Assembly: GCA_048940925.1 (NCBI GenBank)
Contig: JBHLOC010000009.1
Span: 1-64,000, forward strand
Reading direction: 5' to 3'
Length of the DNA stretch: 64,000 bases
Source: Promethearchaeota archaeon
Lineage (GTDB): Archaea > Asgardarchaeota > Lokiarchaeia > Sigyniarchaeales > SOKP01
Positions 44,556 to 51,046 of this stretch are shown piece after piece. A program made the position numbers and the translations under genes. Each line of letters starts with the position of its first letter. Within the stretch, counting starts at the first letter, position 1. The notes beneath the pieces were generated by a model. The model had not been told where the DNA came from. It searched no databases and saw only the letters and a program-made list of their open reading frames with translations.

Positions 44556-45479
44556 TTAGATATTTTCAAAAAATTCTTTTATTTTATTTTCTAATCCAAA
44601 AAGATCTTTTCCTAAGCGAGAAGCTCTGTGTATATTGTTTTTTATTTTTGTCAAATCCTCAATTAATTCAGGCTCTTCAAAATTGTCTGAAATTTCTATT
44701 AATCTATCGAATGGTTCAATTAATTGAGTATATATATCTAATTTTTCACCAAAAAATTCATTAAATAATTTTGCAATTTCTTTATAAAGACTCTCTCGTT
44801 CTTTTAATAATTCAGGGAACCTTCCAACTTGTTCTCCCTTATTTTGTAAAAATGAAGCAATTTCTTCTTCTTGAATAAGCAGTGCTAATTCTGCAGCCTT
44901 TTGGAAGCTCTTTTTTGCTTTTCTATAAAAGGTATCTTTCAGAAATTGATCTGCGATCTTTACTTCAGCTGCAAGTTTTAGAGGAATATCTTCTCCTAAG
45001 TCTATCAATTCTCTTGCTTCTTGAAGCTGTCCATCGTCAAGCATCTTTTTAGTTCTCTCATTCAAAATATCCTTTATAATTTCTGGCTCTTGTAATTTTT
45101 GAATTAAACTTAATATTGTATTCAAGCTATTTTTTAAAATATCATTCATTTTTTTTTTATCAGTAGAAAAACCTTGAATAACCTTTTCTTCAACATTTTC
45201 AAAGATACTTTTTAATGAGATAAGGTCTTCTTCCTCCTGTAGTATAAAACTTATATAAAGATTTTCTTTATCAATAGGTTCAGCATTAAGTTTACTCGAA
45301 TAATAACGATTATTATCTTTACGAATGGTTACAGTTAAAGAATCTTTTTTTACATGTTTTTCAGAAAATTCCTTTAAAATAGCAGGTGGTATTTTTTCAT
45401 CTTGTTTTAAATAATACTCAGCTAATATATTGGGCCCAAATGATTGATCAATTTCATATAGAATTATTGCACGTGGCAT
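44556..45479 (-). CDS. Longin/uDENN-like domain + helical (TPR/MIT-like) protein
   Basis: N-terminal IILYEIDQSFGPNI (h-D-x3-G-P pattern), beta-rich then helical; all-helical C-terminus. Confidence 0.6.
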   Translation of the reverse strand: MPRAIILYEIDQSFGPNILAEYYLKQDEKIPPAILKEFSEKHVKKDSLTVTIRKDNNRYYSSKLNAEPIDKENLYISFILQEEEDLISLKSIFENVEEKVIQGFSTDKKKMNDILKNSLNTILSLIQKLQEPEIIKDILNERTKKMLDDGQLQEARELIDLGEDIPLKLAAEVKIADQFLKDTFYRKAKKSFQKAAELALLIQEEEIASFLQNKGEQVGRFPELLKERESLYKEIAKLFNEFFGEKLDIYTQLIEPFDRLIEISDNFEEPELIEDLTKIKNNIHRASRLGKDLFGLENKIKEFFENI

Positions 45480-45633: not shown

Positions 45634-46551
45634 ATGGTTATTATAGAGGATACATTTTGCGAAGCTTTTGAAGGTCTTTGTTGCCAATTGATGGTAACTG
45701 CTCAAGATAGCGAATTGTTGAATAGAGCAGCTAATGCATTTACTGCTTTACCCTCAACTGTGTTTGGAGATGCTGAAGGAGGTATTGTTAGATGGCTAAC
45801 TGAAAAAGAAACATTCGATGGAAGATTAGGGGCAATAGTTCAATTATGGGTCACAGGAACAGGAAAGAAATCCACATTAAAATTATATGATCAATTAGGT
45901 AAACGGATAAGGCAAGGTATCCTTGTCGTTCCTACGACAGCTGTTTTTAACTACTATCCATATAAATCTGAAATGAATTTTAACATGATGAATAATGTCG
46001 GCCATTGTGGAGATGGTTATGAAGAGATTGTTGAAAAATTTCAAAAAAAAATGATTTCAGTACCTATTATGATGGGATATGATTTTTTAATAGAAGAAGA
46101 AATTTCCTATGCTAAGGGTGTGATGGGGGGGAACTTATGGTTGTATTGTGATTCTGTGAAATCTGGAATTAAAGTAGGCAGAGAAACTGTTAAAATTATT
46201 GCTGAAATTGATGATGTTTGCACACCTTTCGAAGTATGTTCAGCAGGTTCCAAACCGGAAACAAAATTTCCTGAAATAGGTCCATCGACCAATCATCCAT
46301 TCTGTCCTACATTGAAATCTAAACTCGCACCAGAAGATTTTAAAGTCCCTGAAGGTGTTTTATCTATTCCAGAAATAGTATTCAATGCTTTAGATCTTAA
46401 AACAATTGAAAAAACGATGTTAAGAGTAATTGAGAGAATTATTGATTTAGAGGGTTTAATCAAAATATCCTCTGGAAATTATGGAGGAAAATTAGGTAAA
46501 TATAAAATATATTTGCGAGAACTAGGTTTAAAAGAAAATTATTTTTCTTAA
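45634..46551 (+). CDS. ftr: Formylmethanofuran:tetrahydromethanopterin formyltransferase
   Basis: IEDTFCEAF, EGGI, DGR.G, PTTAVFN, GDGYE, GGN, SAGSK, STNH..CP, EIV, GNYGGKLG. Confidence 0.92.
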   Translation: MVIIEDTFCEAFEGLCCQLMVTAQDSELLNRAANAFTALPSTVFGDAEGGIVRWLTEKETFDGRLGAIVQLWVTGTGKKSTLKLYDQLGKRIRQGILVVPTTAVFNYYPYKSEMNFNMMNNVGHCGDGYEEIVEKFQKKMISVPIMMGYDFLIEEEISYAKGVMGGNLWLYCDSVKSGIKVGRETVKIIAEIDDVCTPFEVCSAGSKPETKFPEIGPSTNHPFCPTLKSKLAPEDFKVPEGVLSIPEIVFNALDLKTIEKTMLRVIERIIDLEGLIKISSGNYGGKLGKYKIYLRELGLKENYFS

Positions 46552-46564
46552 AATTAAATTTTTA

Positions 46565-47224
46565 TTACCTTTTTAATTTCTCTAGCTTTTGAAGTTGTTC
46601 TTTAGAATAGATTTTCCCATAATTTTTTGAAAAGATCTTTCTAATTTTTTCTAATGGTACGTCAGTATAGATACCCCAATCTTTAGCATACTCCACGAAT
46701 AAATTCCCTTCATTATCATAAGGAGCTAAAAGGGCATCATTTTCTCCATCATATTCTACTAACGGAACATAACCTGCTTTAATTGCTGTTTCTTTATCAA
46801 AAACAGGAGTTAGCTTTTTCCATTTACCCTCAATATATAATTCACTATAACCATGACAATGAAATGTTCTAGTCCCCATTAATTCTTCGATCCAACTAGG
46901 AATTTTATGATTTATAATATCTATCATGTGGATTCTTGCAGGAATGCCAACTGCTCTAGAAAAAGTAGCTAATAATACAGCTTTTGACATACAGAAGCCA
47001 TTACTTCTGCGTAAGGTAACAGAAGCTTTAAGATTTGCCCTATTACTTGGATTATATGTATACATATTATACTTTATATTATCTCTAACCCAGTAAAAGA
47101 GTGCAATTGCTTTTTCTTTATCAGATTTCAATCCATTGATTATCTCCAAGGCTTTGTCTCTAACTGTTTTTTTATCAAAATCAAGGAATTCAGTTGGTTG
47201 GAGATATTCCTTCATTGAGTCCAT
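46565..47224 (-). CDS. Transglutaminase-like protein
   Basis: YL.PT..D, VRD.I.Y, GFCMSKA, GIPAR, HGYSE. Confidence 0.85.
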   Translation of the reverse strand: MDSMKEYLQPTEFLDFDKKTVRDKALEIINGLKSDKEKAIALFYWVRDNIKYNMYTYNPSNRANLKASVTLRRSNGFCMSKAVLLATFSRAVGIPARIHMIDIINHKIPSWIEELMGTRTFHCHGYSELYIEGKWKKLTPVFDKETAIKAGYVPLVEYDGENDALLAPYDNEGNLFVEYAKDWGIYTDVPLEKIRKIFSKNYGKIYSKEQLQKLEKLKR

Positions 47225-47374: not shown

Positions 47375-49033
47375 TTGGAAGCTTTAATACTTAGTCGATT
47401 TGACCCATTTTATGGTCCAAAAATCTTTTTGAAAGCACCTAAGTCATTAGAGGATGAAATTATAAATGAAATCCCTTCATTAATGGAACTCCAAACAAAA
47501 GGAATTTTTATTCATATATTTAAAAAAATTAAGGCAGCAAATTTATTCTTTAAATTACCTAATGAGCATGCAAGGGGTGGAAATGAAAGTTTAATGATAA
47601 GTATTATAACTGACCTTAAAAGTAATATATCATTGATGTTAGCTCATGACCTTCTTGAAAGTTTTGCGCGAAATCTAACAAATTTAGAAGGAATTTATTT
47701 AGCTTTTGATAATAAAGTTAAAGATGTCCAGAGTGATCCTATAAAATTGAAAGAAATCGAAAAATACTTCTTCTCATATTTTGAATCTATTAAACCTGCT
47801 CTTAGAACTATAAGAATGGCTGAAAATCGTTATCAAGCTCTATTTAAAGCTGCTAAAGATGCAATTGTTATTATAAATCGTAAAAATGGAATGATTGTTG
47901 ATGCTAACTTAGAAACTGAAAAATTAATCGAACAATCTAGAGAAGAAATAATTGGACTCCATGCGCTTAAACTTGAATTATTTGATGAAGGTTTAATTGA
48001 TCCATCTATGATTGATTATTTGATTGATAATCCACCTCCAATAATTTCAAGGATAAAAAAGTCAACTGGTAAGAAGTTATATTTAGAAGTTAGTGTTAAT
48101 GAAATTAAATTAGGAGATGAGCATTTTATTCAGTATATGTTTCATGATATTACTGATCTTCAAGTAATAGAGGAGAAACTTAAGGATCAAGTTAAAAAAA
48201 TGGATATATTAAATACAATCATCAGTATTGCGAACCATGCTAATAATTTACGAGAGTTATTAACTGATATCCTTGATAATTCTATAGAATTATTTGATCT
48301 TAAAGGATGTTGTATATATTTGGTCGAAAAAGCTGGAAAGCTCGCTAGAGTAAAAGTTCACAAGGGATTTCCTCCCTATTTTATCCAACAAAATAATAGA
48401 TTAGATATAACAAAAAATCCTTATGAAATAGTCTTTAATAAAGGTGTTGTACTTAATAATAAAAATTTTCCGGAATTATTAGACCAATTCTTTGAAGGAA
48501 TTGAGTTTAGTTCGGCTGCTGTACTCCCTCTATTTTCAAAATTCGAAATTATTGGTGCTGTATTTATGATTTTTAATGGTAACAAAATACTTAGCTCTGA
48601 AGAGATGGAATTAATTATTTCTTTGGGTATGGAATTAGGTACAGCGATAGAACGTATCCAAAATAAAGAAGAATTACGACGAAGTGAAATAAGGAATAAT
48701 ATTCTTCTTAATCATATTCCATTTTCGATTTTTAAAATTTCGAAAAATGGAATCTTTTTAGATATTAAATTAGATAAAAATATCAAACAAATTATTGAAC
48801 AGACATTTACAACCACAGAATTTATAGGGAAAAATATAAATGATTTCCTACCAAAAGAAACCGCGGAGGAGACCCAAAACAATATTGAAAAAGCACTTAA
48901 AATAAATAAATCAATCGAAATGAAGTTTGTTTTGCCGATAAATGACAATCAAATTATTTTTAAATCTAATATCGTTCCCTTAGAAAATAAAGAAGTTTTG
49001 GTATTTCTACAAAATTTAACAAGAACCTGGTAA
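47375..49033 (+). CDS. Longin/uDENN-PAS-GAF-PAS sensor protein (no kinase domain)
   Basis: N-terminal FDPFYGPKI...HARGGNESLMIS; PAS (RYQALF..A.DAI...DAN...EIIG...HDIT); GAF (LPL....IIG...EMELI..LG..AIE); second PAS to the C-terminus. Confidence 0.8.
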   Translation: MEALILSRFDPFYGPKIFLKAPKSLEDEIINEIPSLMELQTKGIFIHIFKKIKAANLFFKLPNEHARGGNESLMISIITDLKSNISLMLAHDLLESFARNLTNLEGIYLAFDNKVKDVQSDPIKLKEIEKYFFSYFESIKPALRTIRMAENRYQALFKAAKDAIVIINRKNGMIVDANLETEKLIEQSREEIIGLHALKLELFDEGLIDPSMIDYLIDNPPPIISRIKKSTGKKLYLEVSVNEIKLGDEHFIQYMFHDITDLQVIEEKLKDQVKKMDILNTIISIANHANNLRELLTDILDNSIELFDLKGCCIYLVEKAGKLARVKVHKGFPPYFIQQNNRLDITKNPYEIVFNKGVVLNNKNFPELLDQFFEGIEFSSAAVLPLFSKFEIIGAVFMIFNGNKILSSEEMELIISLGMELGTAIERIQNKEELRRSEIRNNILLNHIPFSIFKISKNGIFLDIKLDKNIKQIIEQTFTTTEFIGKNINDFLPKETAEETQNNIEKALKINKSIEMKFVLPINDNQIIFKSNIVPLENKEVLVFLQNLTRTW

Positions 49034-49054
49034 GGTTACAAAGACATACTATTA

Positions 49055-50104
49055 CTAGTCACTAAGTTTTGTTAACATTTCCTGAATTTTTTTACTCTTA
49101 TTTTGAAATTCAAACGCAAGAGAATCATCACCTAAATGAAGACACAAATTACTTATTTTTTCAAATATTTCAATAGTACTTTCAAAATCTCCTTGCTGTA
49201 ATGCGTCTTCAAGTTTATCCATTAAAATATCTCTTTCAAATATAGGTTGTAATAATGGTGATACTCCAGCATCCATATCTAGGAGATCAGCTATAATACG
49301 TATCATTTTAGGGCGATTATTTGGATCAATAGCCACAAAAGAATATGTCTTATGCCCCAATAATCTTTCAATATCTTCAACTTTCATTGCATTAGGTAAA
49401 TCTTGTTTATTCCCAATGACTGCTAAACGAGCAGTAGGAACAACTTTATTAACTAATTCAAAAAAATACCTACTCTTCTCAAGATTTCCTAAAGAGGAAT
49501 CTGTTATTAGTAATACAGCATCACTTCCTCTGATAAATTTCTCCCAGAGAAAATCGAATTGGTCTTGACCTGCGAAATCCCATAAAAAGAAGAAAAGTTT
49601 ACCAATTTTAATAGTTGCAACCTCACCCGTTATTGTAGGAATATGTTGCATAGGAATTTCTTCAGACTTTATTAATTTAGTGGTGGTGGTTTTTCCTACT
49701 CCTGAAAAGCCTACTAATGAAATTTTAGGTTTTAAATTTCTGTGAACGTTATCAACAATTGGATCCAATATATCACTTAATATTTCGAAATTATCATCTT
49801 TAATATTATCTCCATAAAACTCTAAAAATTCAGTTTTAAATTTTTTTAATTGTGGTTTTATATCATCAAAATTGTCACCTAGGCCTGAAACAAAGAGTAA
49901 AATCATGTTTAAATTCTGATCAGCAATATATGAAAGCTTATATTTAAAAAACTCGTATGAGCCTGCCTCTTCTCCAAATTTCGAAAATGCTGCTTTTTTG
50001 ATTATTTGATACACATTTGAAAAAAGATTACTGTCTAAACCCTTAGCATAACTCCTTTGATATGCTATTGAATCATTTATAACTATAAAAATTTGTCGCA
50101 ACAT
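49055..50104 (-). CDS. Arf-like small GTPase with N-terminal longin-like domain and C-terminal helical bundle
   Basis: G1 GFSGVGKTT, PTI, WDFAGQ, NKQD. Confidence 0.88.
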   Translation of the reverse strand: MLRQIFIVINDSIAYQRSYAKGLDSNLFSNVYQIIKKAAFSKFGEEAGSYEFFKYKLSYIADQNLNMILLFVSGLGDNFDDIKPQLKKFKTEFLEFYGDNIKDDNFEILSDILDPIVDNVHRNLKPKISLVGFSGVGKTTTTKLIKSEEIPMQHIPTITGEVATIKIGKLFFFLWDFAGQDQFDFLWEKFIRGSDAVLLITDSSLGNLEKSRYFFELVNKVVPTARLAVIGNKQDLPNAMKVEDIERLLGHKTYSFVAIDPNNRPKMIRIIADLLDMDAGVSPLLQPIFERDILMDKLEDALQQGDFESTIEIFEKISNLCLHLGDDSLAFEFQNKSKKIQEMLTKLSD

Positions 50105-50131
50105 TTTGAATAATTTGTTATCATTTTAGTC

Positions 50132-51046
50132 TTATTGATAGTATTGACTTAATTCATTCTTTAATTTATCTAATATCTCTGTCATAACTTCTTGGTCTAA
50201 ATTTTCAGATAATAAAATTAAATATTTAAAATTATTATGATATTTATTTATATCTTCTATTAACATATTTAAAATTTTAGAACCTGGGCTTATTATACTA
50301 GTTTTTGTTGTAGTAAACCCAGACGATTTGCTTAAATGATATACTTTTTCATATAAATAGAAAAGAATACTAGTATCAAAATCGTTTGACATCTCTTGAA
50401 TAATCAGATTATTTTCTTGATTAGAAACAAAACAACTTGTCTTAGACAAATTTTTGACAATGTTTTTGATAATTTCTTTTAGATTGGAAGTATCTTTTGA
50501 GAAACCACTTATAGTGGCTGACAATGCATTGTAAGTGGTATATATTAAATTTGGATGCAAACTTGTGAAATAAATTTGTATTTCTTCAGGAAGTTTTAAT
50601 TGGGTAATTATTTGCCTTCGTATTAAAGCGAGCATACTTCCAATTTTCTTAGTGATTAATAGATCAATTTTATGCAGAAATAAAACAATTTTAGCATCAA
50701 ATCCCAGCTTTTTTCTAATTTCATAAATTTTCTTCACATCATCAATAATATCTTGTGAATCTTTGATCCAGGTTGGATAATCAAAAAGATAAATGATTGC
50801 ATTGGTATCTCCGAACGCTAATATTTGTTTCTGTTCATCTTCCAATATAATGGATAATGATTGACCAGGTGCATCAATTAGGCTAACTTTTGTATTCATA
50901 AAATCATGGACAGAATATTGCATTTTAATAGTTGCTTCAAGTGGAAAAAGTACTAATTCATTTGGATCTTCTCCTTCGAAGATTACCTTTTGAATTGTGG
51001 TTTTTCCCATTTCTGGTTTTCCAATAAATGTGATTTTTGTAGCCAT
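50132..51046 (-). CDS. Rag/Gtr1-like GTPase with C-terminal roadblock-like domain
   Basis: G1 GKPEMGKTT, LEATI, DAPGQ, IYLFD, Rag-type G4 HKID, G5 TSL. Confidence 0.85.
   Translation of the reverse strand: MATKITFIGKPEMGKTTIQKVIFEGEDPNELVLFPLEATIKMQYSVHDFMNTKVSLIDAPGQSLSIILEDEQKQILAFGDTNAIIYLFDYPTWIKDSQDIIDDVKKIYEIRKKLGFDAKIVLFLHKIDLLITKKIGSMLALIRRQIITQLKLPEEIQIYFTSLHPNLIYTTYNALSATISGFSKDTSNLKEIIKNIVKNLSKTSCFVSNQENNLIIQEMSNDFDTSILFYLYEKVYHLSKSSGFTTTKTSIISPGSKILNMLIEDINKYHNNFKYLILLSENLDQEVMTEILDKLKNELSQYYQ

Follow-up and report, generated by a model that had tools for sequence, protein, structure and literature searches.

A longin-PAS-GAF-PAS sensor gene and a Rag/Arf-like GTPase operon behave as one conserved three-gene unit in a clade of Lokiarchaeia

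A gene for a putative sensor protein with a longin head and a two-gene operon encoding a Rag-type and an Arf-like GTPase lie side by side in a 64,000-nucleotide stretch of DNA from a Promethearchaeota archaeon (GTDB lineage Archaea; Asgardarchaeota; Lokiarchaeia; Sigyniarchaeales; SOKP01; assembly GCA_048940925.1, contig JBHLOC010000009.1, positions 1 to 64,000 of the forward strand), which is referred to here as the window. The comparisons described below support the conclusion that the three genes behave as one conserved unit, beyond chance adjacency, and a functional linkage between them is likely. The more specific reading, in which they are a single conserved signalling module of a Lokiarchaeial clade and the longin of the sensor engages a neighbouring GTPase, is put forward tentatively, its chances being a little short of even. 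That the sensor acts specifically as a GTPase-activating protein (GAP) is doubtful. In eukaryotes, Rag and Arf GTPases are controlled by longin-domain GAPs (GATOR1, folliculin, C9orf72-SMCR8).

Three intact open reading frames (ORFs) were found in the window at the coordinates predicted for them in a preliminary description of this DNA. The sensor gene (47375..49033, + strand) starts with TTG and encodes 552 amino acids with Pfam matches to PAS_9/PAS, GAF_3/GAF_2 and PAS_4. The gene for the 304-aa Rag/Gtr-type GTPase (50132..51046, - strand; Pfam Gtr1_RagA) is followed in the same orientation by that for a 349-aa protein, called lgArf here (49055..50104, - strand), which consists of a longin domain, an Arf-like G domain (Pfam Arf) and a three-helix bundle, the first and last of these being assigned from an AlphaFold2 (AF2) model. 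The stop codon of the upstream Rag gene and the start codon of lgArf are separated by 27 bp, the sensor gene is convergent with lgArf with 21 bp between the two stop codons, and the GC content is about 29% throughout. The genes, the two gaps and the motifs quoted in the preliminary description were thus all recovered in the ORFs and their translations. Its warning that small GTPases abound was also correct: approximately 88 small-GTPase ORFs and about 14 strong matches to Gtr1_RagA are present in the genome. Adjacency alone is weak evidence, because small-GTPase and Rag genes, and genes for longins with a glycine-proline (GP) motif, are all abundant in this genome.

The phyletic pattern was scored in 54 genomes of the genus. 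Intact orthologues of the sensor, with 58-86% identity, are present in 39 of them. The sensor and a Rag orthologue lie on one contig, about 2 kb apart, in 36/54 genomes, and neither is found in 15/54; the remaining three have a sensor and no Rag, for which the state of the assembly accounts in each case (a contig end, low completeness or a run of N). No partial state of the triad was seen among the 54 genomes. Six genomes that lack all three genes keep the flanking genes adjacent to one another (those for a 589-aa AAA-like ATPase, a 307-aa GP-longin and a transglutaminase, and the FeS/FAD genes), and in one of the six a relic of the 5' end of the sensor gene remains. At least five independent changes are needed to place the absences on a tree built from the flanking genes, in which the sister pairs are supported at 96-100%. 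Synteny within the genus was rejected as evidence on its own, since the whole 12-kb region is collinear, unrelated metabolic genes included.

Eleven divergent longin-PAS homologues were examined, two of which were on contigs too short to be used, leaving nine that were informative. At three of these loci (P0127, P0136 and P0154) the sensor gene is again convergent with an lgArf-Rag operon, in wholly different flanks, and the sensor tails differ, being respectively a single PAS domain, three PAS domains, and PAS-HisKA-HATPase, the last in P0154. The proteins of these triads have diverged from those of the window to 65-66% identity in the lgArf G domain, 52% in the Rag G domain and 44-53% in the longin head (two scored with the domains of the window; P0154 gave 40% in the family search). 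A fourth divergent homologue faces a longer lgArf-like GTPase. The lgArfs of all triads, that of the window included, form a single clade (SH-aLRT 97), to which the triad is confined; among the GTDB species representatives a ten-row alignment search found the triad in this genus only. The outcome of the synteny check proposed with the preliminary description is retention or loss as a block within the genus and recurrence with other flanks outside it.

The sister clade of the triad-associated lgArfs is made up of Rag-lgArf pairs with no sensor. The pair recurs there as an operon, and is also tandem-duplicated as a unit. The Rag and lgArf proteins, encoded by a two-gene operon, probably act together. 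Directly upstream of the operon in the sister clade (L029, L032, L036 and L045) is a gene for a conserved protein of 267-269 aa that has no Pfam match, and receiver-histidine-kinase genes are found no more than 3 kb away. L029 and L032 also have a gene for a Rab-like GTPase downstream. The operons of the sister clade may thus belong to another signalling cluster with a different wiring.

The N-terminal 150 residues of the sensor (47375..47824, + strand) are the most conserved segment of the protein among 26 orthologues. The AF2 model of this head has a mean predicted local distance difference test score (pLDDT) of 90.8 and a longin topology (strand-strand-helix-three strands-helices), in agreement with the longin identity proposed for it earlier. 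The best Foldseek matches are NPRL2 in GATOR1 (E 1.7e-6), yeast Npr2, a Lokiarchaeal longin (8yqg) and FLCN (E 8.9e-4). With VIA-align, FLCN and NPRL2 chains give Z 12.4-13.9 (FLCN 13.9, 2.4 Å over 135 residues; NPRL2 13.2), chains of C9orf72-SMCR8 (7o2w, 7mge) Z 10-11.6, and generic longins Z 9-10, with DENN, SNARE and adaptor longins together at 9-10.6; the DENND1 and TRAPP longins are at 8-10.6 overall, DENND1 itself at 10.4-10.6. As modelled, the head is a longin fold closest to the FLCN/NPRL2 GAP longins. The 'uDENN' label attached to it previously is not upheld, as DENND1 ranks below FLCN and NPRL2, and a PAS domain follows directly after the longin with no DENN core. In Pfam the 552-aa protein gave no match for the 150-residue head, and none to Folliculin (PF11704) or NPR2 (PF06218) at E values up to 1.

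Two short motifs in the head are characteristic of the class of longins to which it belongs. Gly14-Pro15 (47414..47419, + strand), the GP motif, lies ahead of strand 2, and Arg67-Gly68 (47573..47578, + strand), the arginine of which is a candidate arginine finger, is placed by the AF2 model in the loop ahead of strand 5. Both pairs, together with Asn56, are invariant in the 26 orthologues. In the structural alignment with NPRL2, residues 1-143 of the model fall on residues 7-143 of the chain, ranges that are compatible with Arg67 at the finger position, the comparison being at the level of ranges only. An exhaustive HMMER search with the sensor head returned 234 cluster representatives, and in an alignment of 57 family members G14 is conserved in 53, P15 in 55, R67 in 53 and G68 in 53, with Asn56 also in at least 93%. 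An Arf domain is present in the same chain in 33/72 family representatives (about 45%), mostly starting directly after the longin. Asgard longins with a GP motif and an arginine finger have been described, with possible GAP activity and with their GTPase partners left open (Traffic 2025, PMC12290439), and the sensor head belongs to that class. NPRL2-like longins fused to sensor and two-component domains have likewise been published (Liu et al., 10.1101/2020.10.19.343400). A profile of the longin family compared with the PDB sequences gave coiled-coil noise and no longin protein.

The genome holds nine genes of the GP-longin family. One of them (C24:21415-24789; L075) encodes a 1124-aa longin-Arf-PAS-PAS-HATPase_c protein (Arf E 1.4e-34), which combines every type of element in the triad, Rag excepted, in a single chain; proteins of this size carry a second, partial longin-PAS repeat. 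On contig C63 (8907-10076 and 11866-12846; L076, L082) a gene for a 389-aa GP-longin whose tail has no Pfam match is divergent to, and 1.8 kb from, a three-gene run ending in a Gtr1_RagA-type GTPase (E 4.9e-24). Three of the seven unfused GP-longin genes of this genome are within 2 kb of a GTPase gene, a number too small, and a comparison too post hoc, to serve as support. The 307-aa GP-longin in the flank of the triad (44556-45479, - strand; hidden Markov model (HMM) E 8.6e-14) has a helical C-terminus and no arginine at the finger position, and its gene is convergent with that for the 589-aa AAA-like ATPase. This protein and the longin of lgArf itself are the candidates for a second, non-catalytic longin with which the sensor head might form a heterodimer. 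That the sensor depends on the 307-aa protein as an obligate partner is unlikely, because it is kept, as is the ATPase gene, in all six genomes that lost the triad.

The remainder of the sensor has the order PAS-GAF-PAS, as had been described, with all Pfam scores above cut-off. The first PAS domain comprises approximately residues 151-270 (47825..48184, + strand; PAS_9 at 162-261, 37.8 bits; PAS at 152-249, 34 bits) and is also matched by TIGR00229 at residues 149-269 (58.8 bits, E 5.8e-16). The GAF domain follows at about residues 290-427 (48242..48655, + strand; GAF_3 at 292-427, 34.7 bits; GAF_2 at 290-426, 33.6 bits), and the second PAS domain at about 440-552 (48692..49030, + strand; PAS_4 at 479-549, 26.8 bits, E 6.4e-6). 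No recognisable output domain besides the longin was found in the Pfam and TIGR scans. PAS and GAF domains bind many kinds of ligand. The GAF domain contains a Cys312-Cys313 pair (48308-48313), of which Cys312 is invariant in the 26 orthologues; a ligand may bind or a redox reaction take place there, and this is the only hint as to the input of the sensor.

The G domain of lgArf, residues 124-275 (49280..49735, - strand), contains the motifs GFSGVGKT, WDFAGQ and NKQD and matches Pfam Arf (PF00025) over residues 123-253 with 66.3 bits against a cut-off of 22.3 (E 3.2e-18). Its G137, K138, T139, D176, Q180 and N232-D235 are invariant among 17 homologues, and the nearest solved folds, the 50 best Foldseek matches, are those of Arf, Arl and the Asgard protein GerdArfR1. 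The AF2 model of the whole protein has a pLDDT of 87.3. In it the N-terminus has no Arf amphipathic helix, and a 123-residue longin domain (49736..50104, - strand) stands in its place; the protein is therefore Arf-like and no canonical Arf. The longin topology of this domain (strands 2-9 and 12-18, helix 25-39, strands 47-52, 55-62 and 67-74, helices 79-100 and 110-123 by DSSP; pLDDT about 90) gives substance to the earlier remark that the domain was 'longin-sized', and it has no Pfam match. It also has neither the GP motif nor the loop arginine, and an hhalign comparison with the longin family of the sensor gave a probability of 1.9%, that is, no profile similarity and no support from sequence for a shared ancestry, a result that says nothing on whether the two domains pair. 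The C-terminal bundle, residues 276-349 (49058..49279, - strand), consists of helices 283-304, 307-324 and 327-348 (pLDDT about 90) and is kept in paralogues. About 1035 homologues of lgArf, titled 'ADP-ribosylation factor-like protein', occur in Promethearchaeota metagenome-assembled genomes, and longin-GTPase fusions as such are already known (PMC10933270; Liu et al., 10.1101/2020.10.19.343400).

The 304-aa protein is, by its sequence, a full-length Rag/Gtr GTPase. It matches Gtr1_RagA (PF04670) over residues 4-224 with 75.4 bits against a cut-off of 22 (E 5.9e-21), and residues 3-303 of yeast Gtr1 (3r7w) align with its residues 2-296, the C-terminal domain included. Its G domain, residues 1-180 (50507..51046, - strand), shows the motifs GKPEMGKT, DAPGQ, HKID, LEATI and TSL, and the P-loop (G1), DxxGQ (G3) and HKxD (G4; H125, K126 and D128) are invariant among 22 homologues. 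Residues 181-304 (50135..50506, - strand) are assigned as a roadblock-type domain by their alignment with the C-terminal domain of Gtr1. A suggestion that this is the sole Rag of the genome, from a phmmer search with the Rag protein that returned only the self match, was dropped because the Pfam model detects about 14.

There is a single Rag gene at the locus in this genome, and two in tandem at the loci of some relatives. In one subclade of the genus the Rag gene is duplicated in L093, L096 and L102, and the Rag-lgArf pair in L100, L110 and L116. The extra copies group with the lone Rag of L088, which suggests that two Rag paralogues have been differentially retained in that subclade. L088 itself and L043 come from a genome (G093) filed under another genus, and their copies of the locus are among the closest to that of the window (flanks up to 94% identical, lgArf G domain 96%), with an identity of only 50% in the C-terminal domain of Rag. 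A replacement of the Rag gene, or a mis-binned contig, in G093 is suggested.

From the gene structure, folds, motifs, neighbourhood, joint loss and fusions we infer the following for physical binding, the target GTPase, the mode of action and the signal sensed. The longin of the cytoplasmic sensor, being of the FLCN/NPRL2/SMCR8 class, would dock on one of the two neighbouring GTPases, and the Arf-like GTPase would be a likelier target than Rag, given how often members of this longin family occur as cis fusions with Arf-like G domains. Docking would be controlled by ligand or redox sensing through the PAS-GAF-PAS part. The most likely chemistry would be activation of the GTPase by the conserved Arg67 beside the GP motif, because both GTPases keep the switch-II glutamine and have no finger of their own. 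Taken to its full extent, this would make the triad a prokaryotic form of GATOR1/FLCN logic, with a small-molecule- or redox-gated Arg67 longin GAP switching off a Rag/Arf-like pair, and in that form the proposal is unlikely.

Several results weigh against an engagement of the neighbouring GTPases by the sensor longin. A GTPase neighbour is missing for five of the nine divergent longin-PAS homologues that were informative, and in two of the three divergent triads the GP of the sensor is replaced by GS or GA. No GP-longin gene was found within 7 kb of the sister-clade Rag-lgArf pairs. At 19 other Rag-family loci searched with the HMM none had a GP-longin beside Rag, with one about 7 kb off, so that there is no general Rag/GP-longin neighbourhood. 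Adjacent genes can vanish in one deletion whatever their function, and the histidine-kinase tails of some relatives show that the output may lie elsewhere than in the longin. A family-level Pfam match is also lacking: among the 57 longin domains, at E values up to 1, Folliculin matched a single one (E 0.0028) and NPR2 none, and the link to the eukaryotic GAP longins therefore rests on the fold and two short motifs. A complex prediction with Rag, lgArf and residues 1-150 of the sensor, in which the sensor was the only chain scored, gave a score of 0.00; this counts neither for nor against an interaction, and it has no bearing on a pairing of Rag with lgArf. The description of the locus as a 'self-contained pathway' was accordingly overstated, given that sister Rag-lgArf pairs have no sensor of this kind and that a histidine kinase forms the end of close sensor homologues.

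The histidine-kinase tails also underlie the first of three other explanations, in which the signal runs in reverse. The longin would then serve as an effector, or as a platform for docking, and respond to which nucleotide lgArf or Rag has bound, the PAS/GAF part (in homologues, the histidine kinase) would be the regulated output, and the kinase-less protein of the window would be a GTPase-dependent adaptor or decoy. HisKA/HATPase_c domains do stand behind the same longin-PAS head in close relatives, one of them (P0154) in a triad, fusions with the order longin-Arf-PAS-kinase exist, and longin and roadblock domains are established as general GTPase platforms (reviewed in PMC10933270). However, the longin is the sole recognisable output domain in the sensor of the window, and an Arg-Gly pair present in at least 93% of family members beside the GP motif is easier to account for if it is catalytic than if it only docks, which leaves this reversal of the signal unlikely.

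Alternatively, the longin could bind a GTPase in the role of guanine nucleotide exchange factor (GEF) or non-catalytic scaffold, as the longins of DENN proteins, Mon1-Ccz1 and TRAPP do, with no GAP activity. The majority of the longin-GTPase regulators that have been characterised are GEFs (PMC12290439), the DENND1 and TRAPP longins do match the sensor head to the extent given above, and the failure of the Folliculin and NPR2 models to recognise the family would fit such a role. The GEF longins are outranked, however, by the chains of FLCN, NPRL2 and the SMCR8 complex (Z 11.6-13.9, compared to 10.6 or less), and the combination of GP and arginine is specific to GAP longins (PMC12290439), so that a GEF or scaffold is considered quite improbable.

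Finally, the three genes might be neighbours by descent only, with the sensor acting on others of the genome's GTPases or on none, and with the joint losses each being a single deletion of a dispensable stretch. The abundance of small-GTPase and longin genes, the collinearity of the whole 12-kb neighbourhood within the genus, the many family members without a GTPase neighbour and the lack of conserved neighbourhoods for most eukaryote-like genes of Asgard archaea (Liu et al., 10.1101/2020.10.19.343400) are all in its favour, but it has little prospect of being right when the triad recurs in different flanks at a lgArf G-domain identity of about 65%, five independent losses took exactly the three genes with 0/54 genomes in a partial state, and the longin family is so often (33/72) fused to Arf-like G domains.

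As in GATOR1 (NPRL2-NPRL3-DEPDC5, acting on RagA/B) and FLCN-FNIP (acting on RagC/D), a longin nearest to NPRL2 and FLCN has a GP ahead of strand 2, the loop that leads into strand 5 holds a conserved arginine, and a Rag/Gtr GTPase with a C-terminal domain is encoded next door. Unlike those complexes, the sensor has no family-level match to NPR2 or Folliculin and neither a DENN nor an NPRL2 C-terminal domain, its longin is fused to a prokaryotic PAS-GAF-PAS arrangement, and the locus has a single Rag gene; no second, non-catalytic longin subunit, Ragulator, lysosome or TOR has been identified here, no search having been made for Ragulator or TOR. The suggestion that the locus is a precursor of nutrient sensing upstream of TORC1 is speculation, as nothing at the locus points to nutrients, and neither a TOR-type kinase nor a homologue of the TOR catalytic domain is reported from Asgard archaea by Liu et al. 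(10.1101/2020.10.19.343400). C9orf72-SMCR8-WDR41 offers a parallel in that its longin GAP, which has both GP motifs and an arginine finger, works on Arf1, the neighbour and usual fusion partner here being Arf-like. The two differ in that lgArf has its own N-terminal longin in place of the amphipathic helix as well as a C-terminal helical bundle, and no WDR41-like partner is known.

Among prokaryotic systems, the NPRL2-like fusions of Liu et al. and the GP longins of PMC12290439 share with the sensor the head domain, the motifs and the sensor-type fusion partners, but neither text, searched for terms on this subject, names a target GTPase for the class and PMC12290439 explicitly leaves the partner open. 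Promethearchaeum syntrophicum MK-D1 has an operon for a pair of Rag-like GTPases, for which dimerisation by way of two roadblock domains is predicted (Tran et al., PMC10933270). The likeness is in the co-transcription of two Rag/Arf-like GTPases with longin or roadblock domains; here, in contrast, a roadblock-type domain stands at the C-terminus of one partner and a longin at the N-terminus of the other. The MglA-MglB system of Myxococcus is also one in which a roadblock or longin protein regulates a prokaryotic small GTPase, with the difference that MglB has neither an arginine finger nor a sensor fusion.

The statement in the preliminary description that the parts were known only individually is out of date, as the fusion of longins to sensor domains (Liu 2020), the longin-GTPase fusions and the operon of a Rag pair (Tran 2024) and the idea of GAP activity (Traffic 2025) have all been published. 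The new findings are the conserved neighbourhood of proposed regulator and target, the all-or-none phyletic pattern with repeated joint loss, the recurrence of the triad beyond the genus, where flanks and sensor tails are different, and the division of Rag-lgArf pairs into sensor-linked and sensor-less clades. The locus is a concrete and testable candidate answer to the question of which archaeal GTPases are acted on by longins with GP and arginine. The three proteins are soluble-looking and modest in size, which makes binding and GTPase assays with an R67 mutant feasible. If the proposal were true, regulated control of Rag/Arf switches by longin GAPs would be older than eukaryotes, and PAS/GAF and two-component sensing would have been what it was first coupled to; if GAP activity were disproved, a popular inference from fold similarity would be weakened.

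Around the triad, a scan of the locus with bacterial promoter and terminator models gave a signal at the level of shuffled sequence, the models being bacterial and not applicable to archaea. Repeats bordering the three-gene block were AT-rich chance matches only, with no sign of a mobile cassette. In the flank, some genomes of the genus have the gene for formylmethanofuran-tetrahydromethanopterin formyltransferase (45634-46551) and others lack it, and the number of tandem copies of the transglutaminase-like gene (46565-47224) varies from one to three, making this flank a dynamic region.

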